From NCBI GenBank assembly GCA_002269645.1, contig NIVC01000871.1, positions 48,513-112,512 of the forward strand: a stretch of DNA of 64,000 nt, given 5' to 3'. The number at the start of each line of letters is the position of its first letter. The stretch's first letter is position 1. The notes under the pieces are model-generated. The model was given only the letters and a program-made list of their open reading frames with translations. It ran no database searches and was not told the DNA's origin. This DNA is from Macrostomum lignano (taxonomy: Eukaryota). Below are positions 21,036 through 42,900 of this stretch, piece by piece. A program made the translations under genes and the position numbers.

Positions 21036-22803
21036 ATGCACACAGCTTGCATCTGGGTGGAATGGAAGACTTCAACAAACCGTGGTCGCGTTAGAATCGG
21101 TATGTCAGACCGACAACAGGATGCCGCATCTTTCAGACAGAGGAATCGACTGCTGACTTGGCTGGCTCCGCTGGAGAACTGCATGCAGAGCAGCTCAGTA
21201 CACGGATTGAGCAGATTAGTTGGAGACACGAAACCGCTGTACCTTCGCATCGCCTGGCTCATCGCTGTCCTTCTCTCGTTCGCTTTCTGCAGTTTGCGAA
21301 TATTTGAACTCTGCGAACGATTCTCCAGTCGGAACATAGCCTGGACGGTGCGCGAGAACGCCATCAGCTTTGAGTTTCCGGATCTGTACGTGTGCAATGC
21401 GAATCCAATTTCTGGTAGCTTTCCAGGAATTCTCAACCTCCTCGTCTATCGGGGTGCTGAATCGGTACAGGCGAATGGCTAGAGAGTCGACTGCAAGATT
21501 TCGCGACGCTTGGAACCAGTCTGAGCTGGCTCTGTACCCTGCGCTGCTAGTCAACAGCCTGCCATTCCAGTTCCTGTCGGATCACCTGGCTCACAGGGCC
21601 TACCAGACTGTAATCTTTTCCAGCCTAACAACCACCTTTGTTCCGGTGAAGACTTTCTACCATCCCCGCTATGTCAACTGCATCAGCCTCAACATGAGCG
21701 AGGCCGATCGACTCGTGTCCGGGCACCGGGGATTCGGTGTGTTTCTCATTCTGTTTCTAGACTCCCTGCTGCCAACAGTCAGCGATATCGATAGCATCGA
21801 TTTTCTAAACGGAAATTCCAGTCTGTCTCTTGTGGATTTAGACTGGGATTTCGGCGTGGACTATTGGCGCCCGAACGGATTCCACGTATTCCTGACTCCG
21901 AAAGATGAGTACCCGAGCGAGCTGGGTGCCCACTTTACTGTAGGACCCGGGCAACAGGCTCGAGCCCAGGTCCGCATGGAGGACACCGTGTACAATACTG
22001 GCGATTTTCCTGACATCTGCGGCTCCGATGCGGGTAACAAAGGAGAGTCAGATTGGATTGATTTTGTTAATCCTTACACTAAAGCGAAAGAGAGGTTTCT
22101 AAAGAGCCAGGAAACCTGCTTCTATCAAGAGCTGGCCAGCCTGTATCAGAAGTTAATGAACTGTTCGGGCTCCCGAATACCACTGGCCTGGGCTTACCGG
22201 CACCTGCCCTATTGTATGAACATCACTAAAGGTGAAAGGACACCGATAGACAGTAAATTTCATCGACTTCGAAGCGACGCAACCATTGCCGCCTTGCAGA
22301 AGTGCGACAAGCTTAAGCGCTGCAAGACCCGTTCCTACACTTATGACTACTCGTCCAGCGGCCTGACGCAAGACCATACTGCTCAGCAATTCCTTGCCGC
22401 CGCGATTCGTAGCAACTACGTGAGTCTAAAATCCACCGGCCTAAAACTGCCAGGCATTGAGCACCTGCTCCAGCTGAACAATAGTAACAATCTGGAGAAG
22501 TTCCGTCAATCGATTGCCCAGATTTCGGTGTCGGCCGTGTCCAGTCAGAGCCGCGAGGTGGAACTGTCGTTACGCTACAACGCCAACTCGCTGTTGGCGG
22601 ATGCCGGGGGGATGCTGGGCTTCTTCCTGGGCATGTCACTGCTGTCAATGCTGGAGCTGCTGGAACTCCTGCATAACTGCGCCCGCTACGTCTGCCGCAG
22701 TTGGAAAAAACGCGTCCTTTCCAACGATGAGAAGTCGACGACATCCATGCAACAGACTGAGCCGGAAACGATTGATGGCACCACAACCGCGTCCGAAGTT
22801 TAA
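21036..22803 (+). CDS. ENaC/degenerin (ASIC-like) channel subunit, essentially intronless, with one frame break near 21410-21484
   Basis: ORF1: pre-TM1 HG motif (SSVHGLSRL), TM1, FPDLYVCNANP. ORF2 (+1 frame): YVNC, GFHVFL, Cys-rich thumb, TM2 LLADAGGMLGFFLGMSLLSMLELLE with GxS filter (GMS). Start may be 21036 or 21102. Confidence 0.88.
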
Positions 22804-23554: not shown

Positions 23555-24605
23555 CAAGGACTTCTAGACTAACAGGACGTAAAACTCAAAGATCGTGCAA
23601 TTTTTTGGAGGCCACGATTTCCTGGAAAAAATACACTGCGAAGATAGGAAAAAATCAGTTTTTCGTCACAAAATCTGTGATTGTGTTTGATCTGGGGCAG
23701 TCAAGACTACCATTCTTTTAATTTAACATGCACAATATGTTACTCTATTATATTTTCATATAGCTGTGTAGTGAAGTTTTCATTTTCATATTGTTTTCAC
23801 TTTATTTCATAAGCCCAAAGTTGCAAACTCACAAGTGGCATTAGCCAAACTTTTTGTGTTGTTCTTTTTAAAATAAAGTATAAAAACATTGCATGTAGGT
23901 ACTCTTAGTCTTAAGCTATTATTGTTGGTTTAGTAACTATACTAATTCCTAGGCCTACTAGAACTAGACCTATCACTACACTATCTAGCCTAATAAGTAA
24001 TTAAATTTAGACAATGACTTAAAGATTAGTATATTTAGATTTTTTTATTATATATAGATTACCAATAAATAGTTTCATATGGTTGGTTACCTAGGCTTGA
24101 GAAAGCTGTATTATCAGTTTTTAAGCCAAGCCTATATTTAGGACTAAGATTTAAGAAGAATAGACTTAATCACAAAAATAGGCCCTAACCATTTTTACTA
24201 GGTATCTATAAGAAAAAACATTGATTAGTCCTTTTATAATTTTTATTTTAAAGGCTAAAAATATTATTATATTACAAATTTGAATAGCTTTTCTTTTCTT
24301 GAATTTGATATTTGGCTAATGCCACTTGTGAGTTTGCAACTTTGGGCTTATGAAATAAAGTGAAAACAATATGAAAATGAAAACTTCACTACACAACTAT
24401 ATGAAAATATAATAGAGTAACATATTGTGCATGTTAAATTAAAAGAATGGTAGTCTTGACTGCCCCAGATCAAATACAATCACAGATTTTGTGACGAAAA
24501 ACTGATTTTTTCCTATCTTCGCAGTGTATTTTTTCCAGGAAATCGTGGCCTCCAAAAAATTGCACGATCTTTGAGTTTTACGTCCTGTTAGTCTAGAAGT
24601 CCTTG
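23555..24605. mobile_element. Non-autonomous long-TIR DNA transposon (MITE/foldback; P- or hAT-like ends)
   Basis: 295-bp inverted arms 23555-23849 and 24311-24605 with 2 mismatches; termini CAAGG...CCTTG; perfect 8-bp TSD GTTTCGAT at 23547-23554 and 24606-24613; 461-bp AT-rich core. Confidence 0.92.
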
Positions 24606-30900: not shown

Positions 30901-33900
30901 TGGGGGATGCTTGCTATCTGGGGGATGCTTGCTATCTGGGGGATGCTTGCTATCTGGGGGATGCTTGATATCTGGGGGATGCTTGCTATCTGGGGATGCT
31001 TGCTATCTGGGGGATTCTTGCTATCTGGGGATGCTTGCTATCTGGGGATGCTTGCTATCTGGGGGATTCTTGCTATCTGGGGGATGCTTGCTATCTGGGG
31101 GATGCTTGCTATCTGGGGATGCTTGCTATCTGGGGGATATTTTCTATTTAGGGGAAATGCCTAATGAAAATTGTCTTTTTGTTACTCCCGTTCTCACCTG
31201 CGGCAGTAGCTGAAGACGCGTCCGCTGCACCCTCCGGCAGAGGCGCGCAGCGGGCACACAGAGCCCAGCGTCGCCTATCGAACGCGATGAAGAGATTCAG
31301 CTGTCCTGGACGTCCAGTGTTCAGCGCCTCCAGGTGCTGCAGGCCCAGCACGGCTCTCGGCAGTCGGGCGGGAATCGCGTCTACGAAGCAAAACCTGGCC
31401 GCCAGCTGTTTCGACTCGAAGCTAACGGTGGTTCGAGTCAGCCTCGGCGAGGCGCGCTTCAAATCCAGCAGGGTCCACTGGCCGCCCACGTCGGCGTCTA
31501 AACGGAAGGCGACGGCGAGTCGAGCGGTGGCTTCCTTGCGTTCGCTGTCTCGCAGCCAGGCTGGCAGAGGCAGCTTGACGGTGACACCTCGTCGGATCGG
31601 AGTCGCGTCGTCGTCTTCGGCGGCGTGGTCGTGATCGTCGTCACAACGGAAACTGTACATCGGGGTGAGGGCGGCGATGTCCATTGTTTCGGAGCGGCGA
31701 AGCTGGCGAGCGAGGGCAGCGCCTTTGTCCGTGAATGGGAGGATCTGTGGGATGGCATTTGATGGAATCTCAATCGTTTTACTCAACCAGTTGATCAAAT
31801 CAATCAAACCAATCAAACCAATCAAATCAATCAAATTTATCAGCCCAATCAAATCATAAATTTATCAATCAAGGAATTACCCTCAGTTTAAACAGTCTGG
31901 GCACTGGGAAGGCATTCTTGGGCACCCGCAGCGACACGCATTGGTCGATGCGAAAATCGATGAGCCCTCCGTTCGGAGAGATCTGGAAGGTCTCCTCCAC
32001 TGGAGACAGCAGCATCATGTACGTTCCAAGGCTGCGAGTGTCCACTCTGATGCTGGAGTGGTCCGCCTGTGGATTAAACAGAATATTTTGGATAAAAAAA
32101 TGCTTCGAATTTTAACAAAAAAAATGAGTGAGTCAATTAAACTACTATCAGTAGAATAATATATCTATTGGGGATTTTCCACGTTTAGTATAGTGGACTA
32201 GCAAGCTGCGCCCCCAACAAAGACAAAAATATGAATATTGAGCTATTGTTAATTGCTCAAGGAAACTGAGGCTAAAAGTAAAAAGCATCCGCCCTGAAAG
32301 TCAGCTGTTTACAGGGCGATTCGTTAAAATGGTCGAACCCTAACCCTACCCAAACACTAACAATAACCCTGCTGAGGGTTACAACGTTTCAGCAACTCTC
32401 CCATGTGCCTGCCTTGACAACTCAGCCATTCCACCCCCCCCCCCCCAATGAACCATGGCATTTTAGCAGCTCCTCCACGAGTACTTTACAATTTGACAGG
32501 GCGAATCGCATACTCAAGGGCCTGAGTGCACAAGGCAGGGCCGCTGTACACCCGTGTGAGCGTGTGTATGAGTGCGTACAGTACTGGCATGTGTAGTGAC
32601 TGGCTGCTAGCTGGTTATTCAGCAGCATTCACTAGCTTTCCCTAAGAGTGCTGTGGTCCGCTGCACAGTAGCTCAGTCCACCTGATCTAGTGAGAGAGTT
32701 AGTGAGAGAGTTGCTGGGCCTAAGTGTTTACTGCCCGATGACTCATCGCCTGAGCAGGCGTGGGCAGCCACACTCAATGTCTTCCCACTCGCGCTGAGGA
32801 GGCGTAGCAGGATGACTCATCACCTGCGCGGAGTATAATGACTGCCTAGAGGGAGTAAATAGGATGACTCATCCGCCCATGTTCTATTTTTAGCACAGAA
32901 AAGCACGTGACTGTGCACGCACACTGTGCGTGGCCACTGACCTTGAGTCACGCCACTGCTGCGTGACAGGGTTGCCTTATTTGGAAGTTGGCCTTGAATC
33001 ACGCGTCGCTCGTGGACAAGCGTGGTACCTGCGGTTTAGGCTACTGGTTTATTTTTAATTTGATTAATCTAAGCTCGAGAGACTCCGGGCTTAGATTAAG
33101 CTAGAAGATTTCCTAGCTACCTTAAATTGGATGAATAGTTGTTACGATCTTAGGTTTACTTTGCTCTACTAATCTGCTATTACGTACTTTTATTTGGTAG
33201 GTCGCTGCCACCAGACTAATGCCCCTTATAATTAATGTTAAATTAAAATAAGTGAGACAAGAGTCAATTTCATATAAGATTATTTAGATCAAACAAACAA
33301 AAGAAATATTATTAAACCAAATATGCAAAAGAAGCTATACAATTAATCCCTATGTTAACAATTCGGTAGACTCCGATTCTTAGTTAGACTAATGGTAGAC
33401 TCCCTTAGTCTTTCCCTATGTTACCTAATTTATTCCTATTCTTCGGTAGACTCCGTTTTGACTAAGTGGTAGACTCCTTCTTAGCCTCCCTATTTTACCC
33501 TAACTTACCCTTAATTTCTGTTTTAGAATTTTTTTTAGTATTTCTATCTTTATACAAGGGAGACTCCCTTATATTTTGAGTTTGTGCTTTGAGACTTAGT
33601 CTCTGAAATATTGTCCTGATGGACGGTCCTGAACGGATCCTTGACTGATTGTCCCGAACGGATGCTTTTCCCGAGGCTAAACAGCCTTTTACTAATAGAG
33701 GAACCCGCTAATACTCGAATTCCCACAACTTCAGATATTTCCCCGAGGGTGAACTACTAACAGTAGCGTAAAAGCAAAACTGCTTATTCTCGATTTCGGA
33801 AAACTAAAATAATTATCTCGACGAATCGGAAACCTTGGCAAACGCCCTTAGCAAAACTGCTTGAACTAAACCCCCTACTACACTTACCCCCCACTAAAAA

Positions 33901-36900
33901 AAAATGTGCAAACCCCTTTGCATATTTAGTTAATATCGGGTTTATTTCAAGTAATTCAGACAGTATTAGTAGTGGCATGCATGGACTAAATATAAGCAAT
34001 ATAATGAGCATGATTAAGCAATAATAATAACTGAGTAATGGTAGCATAGCATAGTATGGAACATAGTATGATTAATTAGTAATATACGGTATAGGTAGTA
34101 ATAATAGCATACTATCAGCAAAGGTAATAAACAGTACGAGTACATGATTAAGGAAAATTAAACGACAATAATTAAGCCATACAATATTAGTTGAGCAATA
34201 TTATGTGAGCATTGAGTATAATGGGATTCATGAAATAGGCAATGACCATATAGGTTTCCTTCCTGAATATTATCGATATGTAAAGATATATATAAGGCCA
34301 AGAAGCGGTGCAATAATTTGAGAAAAAGAAAAAAAATGGCACTATGGCACTGTGTAAAATGCAGACAACATAGAAAAGAAAAGTTAAAGCTGTGTGGTTG
34401 TGTAATAATAACAAAAAAAAAATTACCAGCAATGGAAGCGTTAATCCCTGGGTTATTAAATTTTCAACTCAAAGATTCCCTAGGGGTCGGCAGGTTGGCG
34501 CCCTCTGCGCACACTGGTAAAGCAGGCCGGTTGCTGGCGTTTTCTTGCCTTCCGGGTCAAATAATTCTGCCAGGTCGCGTAGATGTTCACTCACCTGGTA
34601 CGGTGATATTGGTCCTTTCGCCCGTTCCTCTGCATGCTGCAACGCATAGGTGCAGGCCACCTCTAAGCTCTGGATGCGCTGCGCCGCCGTAGCCTTAGCG
34701 AGAAATCGTGTGCAGGCCGCTGGCACTGTCGGATCGTACCGGCCCGTGTTGCCGGTCTGCAGCAACCACCTTTTCAGGGCCTTTGTGCACTTCCGGAACT
34801 TTCTTGGACTGGCGCCGGAAGGTTCGTTCGCTGCGTCTTGGTTGCTGGGCGGTGGTGCGTCGTCTCGAAATAGTCCGGCGACATCCAAGGGAGGCTCATC
34901 CGCCACCGGAGCCGGCTTATGCTCTTGGACATCATTGCTTGGTGGTTCCTCTGCCACTGGTGCCTCATTGGCAGGGCTCAAGGCCTCTTCAATATCGGGC
35001 AGGCTAACATCTAGCAACATTCGTAAAAACTCATCGTGCTCTTCTCTTCTCTCTTCTTCCTGCTTCCTTGTCTCGGCTTCCAGATCTGCGCCTCCCAGAT
35101 CTATTATTAATCTACCTTCGCCTTCTTCTTCCTTCGTAATCGGTTCTTCCCGTGGATGGGGTTTCTCGGGCTCGTCAGCCGTTTCTATCACCCTTACTGC
35201 GCGCACTCTCGGGGGTTCATTTTCGTCTGAATCATGTCTCCTTTTTCCGGAATAAATCTTTTTAATAGGATAAATGCGCTCCGGGGCATCAGCCATAATG
35301 CTATTCGAGCTGGAAGAGTAGATAGGGGTTAAACAACTCCTTTACTCTCTGTACGTAGCTCTTCTGGCCTGGGTCTATCGCTAATCTACTCGGCTCCCGT
35401 CTATTTCTAACTGGTCTATTTTCGACTACTGGCTGTTCGTTATTTTGTACTGGCATATCTTGCACTGGTATATCCTGCACTGGCATAACCTGCACTGGCA
35501 CTGGAACATTATTTTGAATTTGCACTGGCACAAACTGCACTTCATCTTCATGTTCACTCTCACTGTCGGCTGCTTCGTACATCGGATTAAGCGGTACATT
35601 TTCTCGAAGTTTCGGTCGCCTGGCACAACTGCTTTCTGGCTTTTCTTCCTCACTAACGTAATCGGCTGTTGGTACGGGTAGTAAATTATCCCTATGCATG
35701 ACTAATTCCTCTTTTCTAGCCTTAGTACTTTTGTTTAATAATCTAATCCTGTAAACTACTTCTGATAACTGTTCTATGACCTCGTAGACTGCTCTTCTCT
35801 TCCTGTGGAACTTGTTGGCTTCTGTCTGTGTGATGACTGGGTTGTTAATGAAAACTAAGCTCCCTATAGGTAAGTCTGGTTGTTTAGGTTTGTTAGAATA
35901 GTGCTGCTCACGCTTACGTTGTATTAATTTGAGCCGCTGTTTGGCGAGTTCTTGCCCCTCTTGCAGGTGAGTCAAGTGCTCTTGAACATAAGCAGGCAGA
36001 TCGGCGAACGCCTTTGGCTGCTGGAACACATTGTCACTCGGCATCCGGGCCTCTCTTCCAAACACAAGATAATGCGGGCTGAAACCTGTGGCTGTATGCG
36101 TGCTGGTGCGCAATGCAGTTATACAACCGGGCAATAGAACATCCCAGTTCGCATGTTCTTTCTCGAGCAAACAGGTAAGAATTGACTTAATTTGTTTGTT
36201 TAAATTCTCTACTAGCCCATTGCTTTGTGGATGATAGCTTGTTGTCCTAGTGTGCCTAATCCCATAGAGGTCTAGAAACTTCCTAAATGCTCTCCCTGTA
36301 AATTGTGTTCCCTGATCCGTGTGAATCCACTGAGGTATTCCAAAGTCGGCGAAAACTCGCTCCTGCAGAATTTTGATTACTGTCTTAGCCTTCTGATTTT
36401 TAATTGCAAACGCAAACGGAAATTTGCTAGTGCTGTCAATAACTGACAAGACATATTTGTTACCAGATTTGCTAGTCTGACTGATCGGACCTATCAAATC
36501 AATGTGAAGGCGTGAGAATGGCTCGACAATAGGAAAATTCTGCACTGGTGCCTTGCATCGCTTTCTTGATTTACTTTCTAAACAAGATTTGCACTTGGCG
36601 ACGTACTTTTCGACTGCTGTAGCTAATCCTACTCTCCAAAATCTTTCCTTAACTCGCTGATAAGTTTTATCTCTTCCTAGATGACCTGCTAACGGTGAAT
36701 CGTGGAATTCGTGAAAAACTTCACCATCCAAAGACTTGGGCAACACCACTTTAGATTCGGTCCGCCCTAAATTTAAGTCTATTCGGAGAACACCGTCTTC
36801 TATCCTGAAGAGTTCATAATAACCTAGCAGATTTCTAATCTCGTGAGACAATTCTAGTCTTTCTTGAAAGTTCGGTTTCGGCAAGTCAGACTCAATCAGA

Positions 36901-39900
36901 TTCCTGACATAGCTTAGTGCGGGGTCAGCTAGCTGAGCTGCGACCAAATTTTCGCGACGCACCGGGCTACGAAGGTAATCACTCAGCAGTGCATTGCAAA
37001 CAAGCGGGTGCCTTTCCTTAGGCTCCTGTTCTTGCCTTTTGCTTAGCAACCTGCTACTAAAACTCGGAGTATTGTGTCGGTTCGGCGCCATATTCTGCGG
37101 CGAACAGCATGACGTAACTCCACTGTGTAGACTACAGGTTTCGGCTTGCGCGGAATTGCCTGAGCTCACAGTAACAGCTGATGCTGGGTCTGTGTTCACA
37201 GTTGCCCTACAGCTAAGCGACCTGGCATATGGGGATGACTCATCCTGTTGAGGATCCGGGATCCTGGATAGAGCATCAGCATTCACATGCTTAGGGCCAC
37301 TTCTATGCTCAATCTCAAAATCAAATTCACTAAGTCTCTCGATCCAACGACCTAAAATGCCTGTCTGTTCGGTCTGGCGAAGCAACCAGGTTAGGGCATT
37401 GTGATCAGTGCGCACCTTAAAACGTTTCCCTACGAGGTAAAACCTGAAGTACTTCAGCGAGTCAACAATCGCTAGAAGCTCCTTCCTCGTAATCGGGTAT
37501 CTACTTTCTGACTGCCTCATTTTTCGACTATAATACGCGATCGGTCTCTCAACTCCGTCGCTCTGCACTTGATTTAAGACCGCCCCAATTCTGACATCCG
37601 ATGCATCAGTGTCTAACACAAAATAAACTTGGGGGTCTGTATTAAACTCTGGGTAAGCAAGCACTTCTTCGGAACACATCCGTTCCTTCAACAGCTCGAA
37701 GCATTCATCATGAATCCTGGTCCATTTGTCCTGGATACACTTGATGTTCTTCTTCGTTAGCTCACAGAGTGGTGCTGCTACCTCGGCGAAATCTCTAACA
37801 AACTTTCGATAATAGTTACAGAGTCCGAGAAAACTTCGAAGCTCTGTCACAGATTTAGGTTTTGGCCAGTTCCTAATCGTTTCTAACTTTGACGCATCCC
37901 TTTTAATTCCTGATTTGCCTATGACGTGTCCTAGATATTGCAGTTCTGATTTGAAAAGGTGACATTTCTTCGCTTTTAGTTTCATATTAGCTTGGATTAG
38001 TCTTTTGAGCACTTCTTTCAGGTGTTCTAAGTGAGATTCAAAGTCTGTACTATAAACTATTACATCGTCTAAGTAAGCTATGGCGAACTTCTGTGCAATG
38101 TCCTTAAGAACTAAGTTCATGCACCTTTGGAAAGTTCCTGGAGCTCCTTGCAATCCCATTGGCAAAACTTCGTACTCAAACGAGCCTCGATGTAAAGTTG
38201 GAAAACTAGTTTTGCATTTATCTTCTTCCCTAAGAGCTATCTGATAATATCCTGAGAATAGATCTAACGTAGAAAATTGACTGGCTCCATGGAGACACGA
38301 GAATGTTTCATTAATATTAGTTATTGGATACGGAAAGTACTCCGATTTGTTGTTTAGTGCTCGATAGTCGTTAACTAATCTCAGCGAACCATCTTTCTTA
38401 GGTACTATGACTAATTGAGTCGAGTACTGCGAGTAACTAGGCCTAATGATGCCTCTAGCCAACATGAGATCTAACTGCTCATCTACCTCCTTGATCCAAT
38501 GAGGTGGAATCTTTCTAGCTGGTATCTGAACTGGGTTGTTGTCCTTCAAGATAATCTCATGTGTGACTAAATGCGTTCTGCCTAAGTCTAACTCGTGCTG
38601 CGAGAAAGCTGCTGAATGCTCCTTGACGACTTCGATCACCTTCTGTCTCTGCTCCTGAGTCAGTTCAGTTCCTATGTTAATCTCACTAATCCAGTCTTCT
38701 GACTTGTCTTGAACCTGTCTGATGTTTTCGCAAGACTGCGTGTTCTTATTCTGGCATAACTGCTCTTTCTCTGGTTGATCTTTAAGATAGTTTAATTCAC
38801 TAGCTAAAAGTGGCTTAGCCATTCCTACTAGTGCTGCTGCTGGCACTCTAGCTTCCTGTGAGCTGGTGTTAATCACTTCCAGATAAGCTCCTCCTTGTCT
38901 CAAAGTTACTAGACTTGGCACTACAGTTACCTTCTCTGCTCTAGTCTTCAATCCTGATCTGAGTGGCTCAACAACTGACGGCACTCCGAAATTGGATTCA
39001 CTACCTGTGGCTAATCTAACCTTGACTAATCCTGAACTATTAGCTGGAACTGTCGTCTTTTCTGCAACATAGATTCTCTTAACCTGAGGCTTAGCTCTGG
39101 TAGAACGAAGTGGAATTCTGGTTCCCTGCTTCATAGTTAGCATTCCTGTCTCAAAGTCGATAGCATTACAATATTGTTGGACAAACGTCACGCCTATTAC
39201 ATTGTCTACTTCTGCGTCACATAAGAGAAACTCTATTTCTTCTTCAAAATCACCGAATGTCGCCTTAATAACTACGGAACCTTTAATTGGAATCGGCTCT
39301 TCTGTGAACGATACGATTCTATTGTTCCATTGTTTAATTAAGTGACTATTCTTGCCAGTGAACAAGTGTTTCCAGGTTTCACGTCCTAGAATGTTCCTAT
39401 TGCTGCCAGTGTCTAATAGATAAACTACCTCCTTATTTAGAATGCTGCCAGTAATATACGGATCGTAATTTTGCTTCTTAGTTGGTTCGCTTAAATTTTG
39501 TGGTTTAATTTGCTGCTTACTAGAACAAGGTTGTTGCTGTGGTGCGTGTGAAAAGTGCTGAGAATAAATATTTGGTTGATTAAATGATTGATTAAATGGT
39601 TGCGCATGTCTACTGTTATACAAAGAATTCAATTCACTATTTACAGAAAAACTATCGCTGCTATTTACAGGTTGCGAGGCTACAGACTGCTGGCTGTCTA
39701 CTTCTGGAAAGCGTTGCCTCCTACGCTTCCGGCTACTCCGTTTCCCTGATTCTTATTCTGGTACTGCTGCGGGAACTGCTGCTGCGGGAACTGCGGCGGC
39801 GGGTACTGCGGCTGGTACGGAATAAACTGTGGTGGTTGTGGAAACTGCTGCTGCGGAAACTGCGGCTGATTCTGCTGCTGCTGGCAATGCTTAGCTATGT

Positions 39901-42900
39901 GACCGCTTTTCCCACACTTGAAGCACTTTACTGGCTGCTTCTGACCTTGGCCCTGTTGCTGGCCTTGGTACGGCTTCTGTCTAGCCTTCTGCTCAGCACT
40001 CTGCTGGTGTCGAAGCAACTCCTGGAGTACCCTCTGCTGGCTTTCTAGTGTCTCACCTTGCTTGCGGACTAACTCCCTCAAGCTACTTTCCGCCTCATCT
40101 CCTCCAGTTGCCTTGCACTGAGCTGGATCTCTACCTCGGCGAGACATGGTATACGCCATTTCGATACGTCGCAAAACTCGACGTGTCTCTTGGAGTGTGT
40201 TCGCCTGTGCTAGCAGTAGCTTCTCCCTAGCCTCTGGGGTTATCCTAACACCTCTAATAAATTGTTCCACCACTTCTTCCTGTCTTTGGTCATTAGTTAG
40301 GTGGGGAAATGCCATATAGGCTAACTCTGTCAGCTTCTCCGCATAGTCGTCAGAGCTCTCTGTCTTAGATTGATATCTGCTGCGGAATTCTTCCCTAGCT
40401 TCTTGGGCACTACCCGCATGCGTGAATCGTTCGATGAGCCTATCCTTGAATTCAGCATACGGTAGATTAGGGTCTAAATTCAGCCTTGTCACAATAGCAA
40501 ACGCTGATTGGACATCTAGATTAGATAGTAGTTCATTTTTCCAATCGGCTGCAGGTATCTCATCTGCGATACACCTTTGCTCAAAAGCCTGAATCCATAC
40601 GTCTATATCTTGATTAGGCGTGTACTTTTGGATCCTAATGTGCTTTCTAATGTCTAGTCTGTCTCTAATTCCTTCAGCCAGAGCTTCTACTACTTCGTTG
40701 GCGTCCATTAGTTTTTCGAATTACGAATTATCGCTTCTGATACTTACTATTAATTGAATTCAGTGAGACTGGGAGACTCCTGAGTCACTGATCTATTTAA
40801 CTAGTTTTTAATTGGTTATTTCTAATTTGTGAACAGAACTGCTAGACTGCGTGATCTCTTCACTTTTAACTGGGTCAATTATGACCTTGCTATCAAATTT
40901 CGAAACTGCTAGTTCAATAGAAGCGTTAATTCGTTCTTTAATTTGTTAATCCTAGGATTTAGGATTATCGCATTAGTTTCAGTATTTAGATTACCTTCTC
41001 TCCTGATTCTGACTTTCCGAAACGTTTTTATTTTGCAGGTTATATATATTACTGATTTTGCTAGTTTTGCACCAGTCTTTAACTTTTTTTGCGTTTCTCG
41101 GGTTTACTAATCCCCTAAGCTGCCACCAATTGGACAAGCTAGCGTGGTACCTGCGGTTTAGGCTACTGGTTTATTTTTAATTTGATTAATCTAAGCTCGA
41201 GAGACTCCGGGCTTAGATTAAGCTAGAAGATTTCCTAGCTACCTTAAATTGGATGAATAGTTGTTACGATCTTAGGTTTACTTTGCTCTACTAATCTGCT
41301 ATTACGTACTTTTATTTGGTAGGTCGCTGCCACCAGACTAATGCCCCTTATAATTAATGTTAAATTAAAATAAGTGAGACAAGAGTCAATTTCATATAAG
41401 ATTATTTAGATCAAACAAACAAAAGAAATATTATTAAACCAAATATGCAAAAGAAGGTATACAATTAATCCCTATGTTAACAATTCGGTAGACTCCGATT
41501 CTTAGTTAGACTAATGGTAGACTCCCTTAGTCTTTCCCTATGTTACCTAATTTATTCCTATTCTTCGGTAGACTCCGTTTTGACTAAGTGGTAGACTCCT
41601 TCTTAGCCTCCCTATTTTACCCTAACTTACCCTTAATTTCTGTTTTAGAATTTTTTTTAGTATTTCTATCTTTATACAAGGGGAGACTCCCTTATATTTT
41701 GAGTTTGTGCTTTGAGACTTAGTCTCTGAAATATTGTCCTGATGGACGGTCCTGAACGGATCCTTGACTGATTGTCCCGAACGGATGCTTTTCCCGAGGC
41801 TAAACAGCCTTTTACTAATAGAGGAACCCGCTAATACTCGAATTCCCACAACTTCAGATATTTCCCCGAGGGTGAACTACTAACAGTAGCGTAAAAGCAA
41901 AACTGCTTATTCTCGATTTCGGAAAACTAAAATAATTATCTCGACGAATCGGAAACCTTGGCAAACGCCCTTAGCAAAACTGCTTGAACTAAACCCCCTA
42001 CTACAATCGCATGATTTTAGTAACCAAATAAGGAAGTTTCACGCGCTCACCGCATGAAACTCACTCTTTTGGGGGTCCGCTTGGCTATAAATACGGAGCA
42101 TCTGCGAGCCATTTTTCTCCAGACTGCGTCGTCTCGCGGAGCATCGTGGCTGACTCGAAAGCCTTCTCCGAGCTCTCCTCTCTCATTTCAGGTTTTTCAG
42201 GTTTTCAGGTTCGAGCAGCATTCTACTAAGACGATCAACTGTCGAGACATTTTTCTGATTTGCCTTTGCTCCGAGCGACTTCGTTATTTTATTTCAGGTG
42301 ACGGATAGACAACTCTGCCGACGCGTCGAGTCCGCACACCAAGGTGTCAGCAACCCTACCAAGTCAAGGCTAACGTTTTAGGTTCATTATCAGGCAAATC
42401 GATAGGTAGTACAACGGTGCTATCTAGCTACTTCAGGAGCAGCGGGTTCTATTTCTAGGAACATCTTCAAGAACCCGAGAAGAAGCATAACAAATGTGCT
42501 GAGTCAGCGGCATTGGAAGCGGATTGCAACTATGAGAAGCCTGAGTGAACTTTTCGCAGAAGGATAAACTGTGGAAAACCCGCGTAAAACCATGGAAAAA
42601 CCGGCTTTGCTGAAACGGAAATTTTCTACTTGTTTTTCGAATCTACGGACGCCACAGTCACACTTGAAGTGTCGGCGCCTCACCTCCAGGTTGCTGGCCG
42701 GAAGTTCCTTCCAAGGCGCTCCGCCGCCACTGCCTCGGTGCAGCAGCCGCAGTCTACTGAACTGGCTTGGCTCGCCTTCTGGCAGCTTCAACGGCAGCTT
42801 CAACGCCAGCTGGCATCTTAGGCTGCGCACGCTGGGGCTGGCGAGCTGGTAGACTGGGGAGACCAGGCGTTCCATCTCGGCTAGGCGAACGGTGAAGTCT

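Follow-up and report, generated by a model that had tools for sequence, protein, structure and literature searches.

What does a retrotransposon encode in the slot where env would be expected, and from which RNA is that gene read? These questions are raised by a complete Ty3/Gypsy element of the flatworm Macrostomum lignano, which runs from 42005 to 33013 on the minus strand of the window (the whole 64,000-nucleotide stretch of contig NIVC01000871.1 that was analysed) and carries a third open reading frame, ORF3, directly after pol. Non-env third ORFs are already known from rotifers and nematodes, as is a split between splicing and an internal promoter for the env of Tor elements. Few of the non-env accessory genes that animal LTR retrotransposons carry have been characterised, the CERV protein of Caenorhabditis elegans Cer1 being the one tested case found. 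An initial annotation of the locus, made from the letters alone, had proposed an accessory protein such as a silencing suppressor or a targeting factor, expressed like env from a spliced subgenomic RNA. M. lignano is a transgenic, RNAi-amenable stem-cell model, so it can be tested directly whether simple retrotransposons evolved regulators in the style of complex retroviruses, and whether a retroelement can use the SL trans-splicing of its host.

Membership of Ty3/Gypsy is borne out by the LTRs, the primer site, the polypurine tract, gag and the subsequent order of reverse transcriptase (RT), RNase H and integrase (Table 1). The two LTRs are nearly alike, with a single substitution and two short indels between them, which marks the insertion as young. 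The primer-binding site is presumably of the tRNA-Leu type; its motif recurs inside both LTRs (41335 and 33210), 130–200 nt before the LTR end, in both of the subfamilies termed A and B below. The pol frame, 99% identical to one M. lignano protein record, would be reached from gag by a -1 frameshift at a slippery heptamer. A sense-oriented GGAGTCT motif recurs three to seven times over LTR and leader, beginning at the putative TATA, in 7/7 copies scanned, one repeat lying about 70–80 nt upstream of gag (at 40780 in the window, with the B copies alike in the scan), and is a candidate protein or RNA site. Sibling copies are bounded by 4-nt target duplications and their flanks are unrelated to each other, which rules out site-specific insertion and leaves the suggested targeting role of ORF3 unsupported.

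Table 1. Features of the element and of its ORF3 (window positions unless a copy is named)
Feature	Position	Strand	Basis
5' LTR, 875 nt, TG...CA	41131..42005	-	LTR-LTR comparison; ends set from siblings flanked by 4-nt target duplications
Best-scoring candidate donor, 8/9 consensus matches, in the first 1.4 kb, inside the LTR	41625..41633	-	
Primer-binding site	41119..41128	-	sequence, sibling copies, leader comparison
Initially proposed candidate donor AAG/GTAATC, GT at 40994	40989..40997	-	leader comparison
gag, 336 aa, zinc knuckle	39698..40708	-	ORF and domain search
Slippery heptamer, X XXY YYZ type	39740..39746	-	sequence and reading frames
pol frame: protease-like, RT, RNase H, integrase (Gypsy order)	35301..39752	-	domain search
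Antisense intron	L055:2404-5904; matching window sites: donor after 36174, acceptor before 39671	+	contig joints
Predicted 3' splice site over the end of pol: branch-like motif, pyrimidine tract, CAG	35310..35333	-	
ORF3, 275 aa, intact accessory gene	34469..35296	-	ORF list, genome matches, alignment, selection
ORF3 aa 1-20: conserved A-P-x-R motif and basic patch	35237..35296	-	alignment
ORF3 aa 63-95: hydrophobic-acidic motif, then acidic amphipathic helix	35012..35110	-	alignment, model
ORF3 aa 164-265: predicted five-helix domain, basic first helix	34502..34807	-	model pLDDT 77.6, pTM 0.71
Polypurine tract	33883..33895	-	sequence, sibling copies
3' LTR, 870 nt	33013..33882	-	LTR-LTR comparison

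ORF3 is a real gene family under purifying selection. The frame is intact in the window, with its ATG 4 nt past the pol stop as first described, and 108 of 127 scored candidates in the genome match it at 26–100% identity, splitting into subfamilies termed A, B and C here. The family proteins are 240–285 aa long, and alignment of 15 intact ones leaves 46 invariant columns. Comparison within subfamilies gave 0.57–0.86 synonymous against 0.12–0.25 non-synonymous changes per site in 18 of 20 pairs, in which synonymous sites are near saturation, while the two unsaturated pairs have dN/dS values of 0.20 and 0.34. Three of the six pairs among the four youngest A1 copies lack a synonymous excess, these copies being too alike to tell, and such a neutral look is expected from decay after insertion. 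No region of ORF3 with dN/dS above 1 was found. The initial view, that an accessory gene other than env occupies the env slot, holds, the gene being selected and its protein free of membrane segments. A description of the family was not found in the literature; the main text of PMC12801592 mentions neither the ORF nor splicing, and its supplements, or an earlier classification paper, may note the ORF. A 193-aa plus-strand frame over ORF3 has no Pfam match at cut-off.

The gene is exchanged between backbones as a 3' cassette. The window element and two A2 copies are 94–100% identical per 200 nt through gag-pol, with a sharp break near 35530 beyond which identity falls to 54–69% over ORF3 and the 3' untranslated part, indicating that old ORF3 cassettes recombined onto one gag-pol backbone. 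LTR types are mixed too. The A1 ORF3 occurs with the 875-nt LTR (window, L032, L034) as well as with a 710-nt LTR (L031, L033), the latter being found also with the A2 ORF3, and strict pairing of ORF3 type and LTR type is absent. Separately, the RT of subfamilies A and B is 92–97% identical while integrase is 70–80% identical (window 37300-38700 compared with copies L044, L052 and L055), which points to exchange of an RT segment between them. At one further locus (L068:3300-7900) an A-type ORF3 with no acceptor before it lies directly after a gag-pol that is degraded and belongs to a more distant family; this locus is possibly a chimera.

The protein has none of the hallmarks of an envelope. 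The highest 19-residue hydropathy is 0.57 in the window protein and 0.65 across the family, so that a membrane segment is absent in 15/15 family proteins, as it is in 14/14 proteins of the sister families described below; a C-terminal membrane anchor and a hydrophobic signal or fusion peptide are both lacking, and no RxK/RR furin site occurs in the window copy, much as the initial annotation had it. The basic N-terminus that it reported is likewise present. The A-P-x-R-type motif there is found in 15/15 family proteins and a K-K/R-x-K/R cluster in 13/15, the window protein itself having no strict cluster; from composition, we take the basic patch to be a candidate nuclear localisation signal. 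The conserved hydrophobic-acidic pentapeptide at aa 63-67, present as a loose pattern in 15/15 proteins, we take to resemble a SUMO-interacting motif (SIM), and the acidic amphipathic helix that follows presumably resembles an activation domain. In the structural model the N-terminal half is acidic and disordered, a single helix spans 69-95, and five helices form a domain at about 164-265. A Cys-containing C-terminal domain had been described; the domain is indeed predicted, but the Cys label was overstated, as 12 aligned domains share only one invariant Cys, the model is all-helical and the sister proteins have one to four Cys. With a single invariant Cys, the domain is not a Cys finger.

Neither ORF3 nor its isolated C-terminal domain gave a significant fold or sequence match in the libraries searched. 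Pfam returned nothing for ORF3 at cut-off and Rfam no match, a search against 5.8 billion proteins found none, and homologue searches restricted to proteins of near length gave 0/1576 candidates with the single protein and 0 of 8000 scored with the alignment. Among PDB sequences the best E was 0.18, Foldseek produced no E under 0.001 in the pdb or viral libraries, and VIA-align with the domain reached Z of 7.2 and 6.5 at best, to generic helical bundles. Foldseek rows to adenovirus 33K (E 0.08 and 0.29) were gone when the isolated domain was used. The ESM Atlas values of 0.82 for the window domain, and of 0.92 for a sister domain to bacterial clusters of low recognition, are leads only.

The second question concerns the RNA. 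The last pol codons had been read initially as a 3' splice site, and the layout is present: TTTAAC at 35333-35328, a pyrimidine tract and a CAG ending at 35310, so that the would-be exon starts at 35309. By pyrimidine content this acceptor ranks first among the 464 YAG sites of the element; it has no AG in the preceding 17 nt and its branch-like motif lies about 20 nt upstream. The corresponding site ranks 1/453 in one A2 copy and 4–5 of 458–489 in five B copies. Sibling copies keep the motif, with TTNCAG 13–18 nt before the ATG in 46/46 scored copies (49 loci less one duplicate and two unscored, the window included), which represent few lineages. The codon that holds the TT before NCAG alternates between Leu and Phe with no loss of the TT, and three copies retain TTAAC despite a changed pol residue; acceptor conservation overlaps constraint on the pol protein, the two not being separable on so few lineages. 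Across the subfamilies the ATG lies 2, 3 or 4 nt past the pol stop, and this variable offset argues against read-through; with no conserved frame offset, read-through or frameshifting from pol into ORF3 was rejected.

The donor side is less orderly. The proposed AAG/GTAATC is present in the leader of the window element and in 9/9 A-type leaders, but in 0/15 B-type leaders, and with 7/9 consensus matches it ties for second place with three other sites, below the site at 41630 in the LTR. The latter, at 8/9, had no counterpart when other LTR types were scanned.

Assembled contigs of seven runs from four studies, presumed to be RNA, were compared with the window (four runs) and with a B copy (four runs, one common to both). 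Among the joints and loose ends listed for these seven runs there is no joint or loose end at 35309, where the initial annotation had placed the junction, and no SL leader joined at the acceptor, and contigs cross 35309 unbroken in runs X1, X3 and X6; assembled contigs may drop minor sense junctions or SL joints. Retro-copied spliced forms were not seen among the 46 scored copies. The proposed spliced subgenomic RNA fares accordingly: its acceptor is conserved and top-ranked, but its junction does not appear in the seven runs and its donor is missing in subfamily B. The contigs do contain an antisense-strand skip of 3499 nt, bounded by GT-AG, on the B copy in three of four runs from three studies. 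As the deletion occurs in 0/37 genomic matches, the skip is a real antisense intron, and most copies of subfamilies A and B retain both of its splice sites. Its recovery demonstrates that junctions can survive in these contigs and that part of the coverage is antisense, and it supports the RNA status of three runs. A protein from this antisense RNA was rejected, no start being conserved between the two copies checked and no antisense ORF being conserved.

Related families offer a second arrangement. A further M. lignano record with 64% RT identity (sister families about 65%) led to 15 additional loci. In every one of the 15, pol is followed by an ORF whose C-terminal domain is common to the set, two of these ORFs looking broken in the N-terminal half. 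One sister domain has 142 matches among 150 scored in the genome. Profiles of the window-family and sister domains match over 60 columns only, with a probability of 67.5%, an E of 5e-5 and a score of 32.3, against 15.6 for the reversed control and 0/40 block shuffles reaching 32.3. An E-A-P-L/E-R motif in 8/15 sister loci matches the N-terminal motif of the family. Profile match, motif and shared slot together make it likely, though not certain, that the sister ORF3 is homologous. RT and integrase trees, in which the outgroups include no named reference elements, place the window lineage as sister to these families, so that ORF3 probably predates their split; the direction of change between promoter and acceptor is unrooted in them.

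Sister ORF3s start 203–535 nt past the pol stop. A strict TATA lies 72–106 nt before the ATG in 7/14 sister copies, against 0/201 pol windows, in spacers whose AT-richness inflates TATA matches and with a start coordinate that is not an ATG in two copies; AGCCAAT occurs in 7/14 spacers against 23/201 pol windows. Most sister copies have no strong acceptor before ORF3. This suggests that the sister families drive ORF3 from an internal TATA promoter rather than by splicing. The window lineage has no strict TATA within 600 nt upstream of ORF3 in 11/11 copies. In five sister copies (L146-L149, L151) the end of pol is T-rich and runs into the AG of its stop codon, four of them having no strict TATA, and a third mode of ORF3 expression is possible there. 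Overall, a whole clade carries one orphan protein family (108 + 142 genomic matches), apparently in two expression cassettes, with ancient ORF3 variants swapped onto one backbone.

For the window lineage, cis-splicing may tentatively be put forward as the source of the ORF3 message, at somewhat under an even chance. It is rather unlikely that ORF3 is expressed unspliced, by reinitiation after the pol stop or from a TATA-less promoter in pol, with the acceptor a by-product of pol codons. The ATG follows the stop within 2–4 nt in all subfamilies, and neither a junction in the seven runs nor a retro-copied form among the 46 copies was found, all of which would fit such expression, as would the env of Tor3b, reported to start inside pol (PMC4402516). 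Against it, the site leads the ranking in an element rich in purines, its conservation is seen at the nucleotide level, and minor junctions may drop out of assembled contigs. Reinitiation should moreover give little protein, because pol itself depends on frameshifting, and a promoter in pol would have to act with no TATA in 11/11 copies.

Somewhat less probable again, and unlikely, is SL trans-splicing of the ORF3 message. M. lignano is reported to trans-splice about 30% of its genes, at a YTNCAG acceptor (PMC8629364). The window lineage has YTNCAG in 46/46 copies, cis and trans sites looking alike, and host trans-splicing at this motif would explain a conserved acceptor with no conserved donor. 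Improbable, in our estimate, is the fuller scheme in which a Gypsy clade that is non-infectious has a transcriptional switch protein of its own, from an undescribed family, whose internal promoter was replaced by an SL trans-splice site in the window lineage. If true, genomic RNA of this lineage would be processed like a host operon, releasing the ORF3 message.

As to function, the favoured reading, put forward tentatively, is that the ORF3 protein acts in the nucleus to activate or de-repress transcription of the element itself; in the window lineage its message would probably be a separate RNA with its joint at the predicted acceptor, 35309. The basic patch would allow nuclear entry, host machinery would be recruited by the acidic amphipathic helix, and the small basic helical domain would bind chromatin or nucleic acid. 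In the sister families an internal promoter would supply ORF3 early and so raise LTR output in the style of foamy virus Tas; in the window lineage the spacer is missing, and the promoter's part would fall to the acceptor that overlaps the end of pol. Basic clusters, acidic helix, basic helical domain and the internal promoter of the sisters together make a Tas-like layout. Against the activator, none of the fold or sequence searches suggested DNA binding, ORF3 and LTR types lack strict pairing, the window protein has no strict K-K/R-x-K/R cluster, and no common response element of spacer and LTR was found. Shared 9-mers between sister spacers and LTR regions stay within the shuffle maximum in 12/12 copies, a comparison that degenerate sites would escape.

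Tas is transcribed from an internal promoter (PMC12789967), and the likeness lies in a regulatory gene near the 3' end with such a promoter, here predicted for the sister families. The two differ in that no match of sequence or fold was found, the flatworm elements have no env and the spacer–LTR comparison just mentioned turned up no common element. Tor elements of Oikopleura are reported to express env by splicing or from an internal promoter located within or after pol, both modes for a third ORF occurring in one element group (PMC4402516); the Tor ORF3 is a membrane glycoprotein with RACE-mapped transcripts, whereas the flatworm protein is soluble and its transcripts are predicted. Errantivirus env-F, also a third ORF after pol, is read from a spliced subgenomic RNA (bioRxiv 2023.08.03.551782), but unlike it the flatworm ORF3 lacks a signal peptide, a fusion peptide and a membrane anchor. 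LTR elements of bdelloid rotifers are described as having non-env genes in the ORF3 slot, which are recognisable enzymes or membrane proteins (PMC5408684), whereas the flatworm ORF3 matches no family.

The activator or de-repressor is ranked ahead of a factor like Rev or CERV that would export or stabilise unspliced genomic RNA and be made from a spliced message, which is doubtful. The precedent is CERV, a lineage-restricted non-env accessory protein of a Gypsy-type element, nuclear, made from a spliced RNA and required for export of genomic RNA, with structured domains and flexible linkers (PMC10309623). An element with a strong acceptor must, moreover, protect its unspliced RNA, and the GGAGTCT repeats of LTR and leader could be an RNA site. 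These repeats are, however, absent from 12/12 sister-family LTR regions, and the sisters, mostly without a strong acceptor, would have less need of an export factor. CERV itself is reported to share exons and frame with gag and to comprise 517 aa with a G-protein-like domain and a Cys loop (PMC10309623), whereas ORF3 lies after pol, has 240–285 aa and a five-helix domain, and is spliced and nuclear by prediction only. No listed sequence or fold match links the ORF3 domain to those of CERV, the G-protein-like domain included.

Less likely still, ORF3 would counter host silencing, either small-RNA or SUMO-dependent chromatin silencing, in an arms race that keeps and swaps diverged cassettes. Such a race would account for synonymous-saturated cassettes on backbones that are nearly identical up to the break near 35530, although template switching alone predicts cassette swapping and no region shows the dN/dS above 1 that would point to it. 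The family does have a spliced antisense RNA, and the loose SIM-like pattern recurs in every family protein, but the motif is short and its SIM label presumptive. That ORF3 serves the particle or integrase as a structural or targeting partner, or is what is left of a degraded env, is quite improbable: the env-slot position and the frequent role of small helical bundles in protein contacts are in favour of this, but there is no signal or membrane segment, insertion flanks are unrelated, and simple decay of env is excluded because the soluble domain is under purifying selection.

The surroundings of the element deserve brief description. It is inserted in the LTR-like or promoter-like end of another multicopy repeat (32900-33012, 42006-42500), which has 40 matches, some paired about 9.8 kb apart. 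The insertion point lies above a TATA and between two boxes that we take to be CArG-like, and the empty site is present in contigs of 3/4 runs. Elsewhere in the window, two long intronless frames on the plus strand at 21036-22803 have the look of what is presumably a degenerin/ENaC-type channel gene, and a 295-nt inverted repeat, 99% complementary and enclosing 461 nt (23555-24605), is likely a small non-autonomous DNA transposon.
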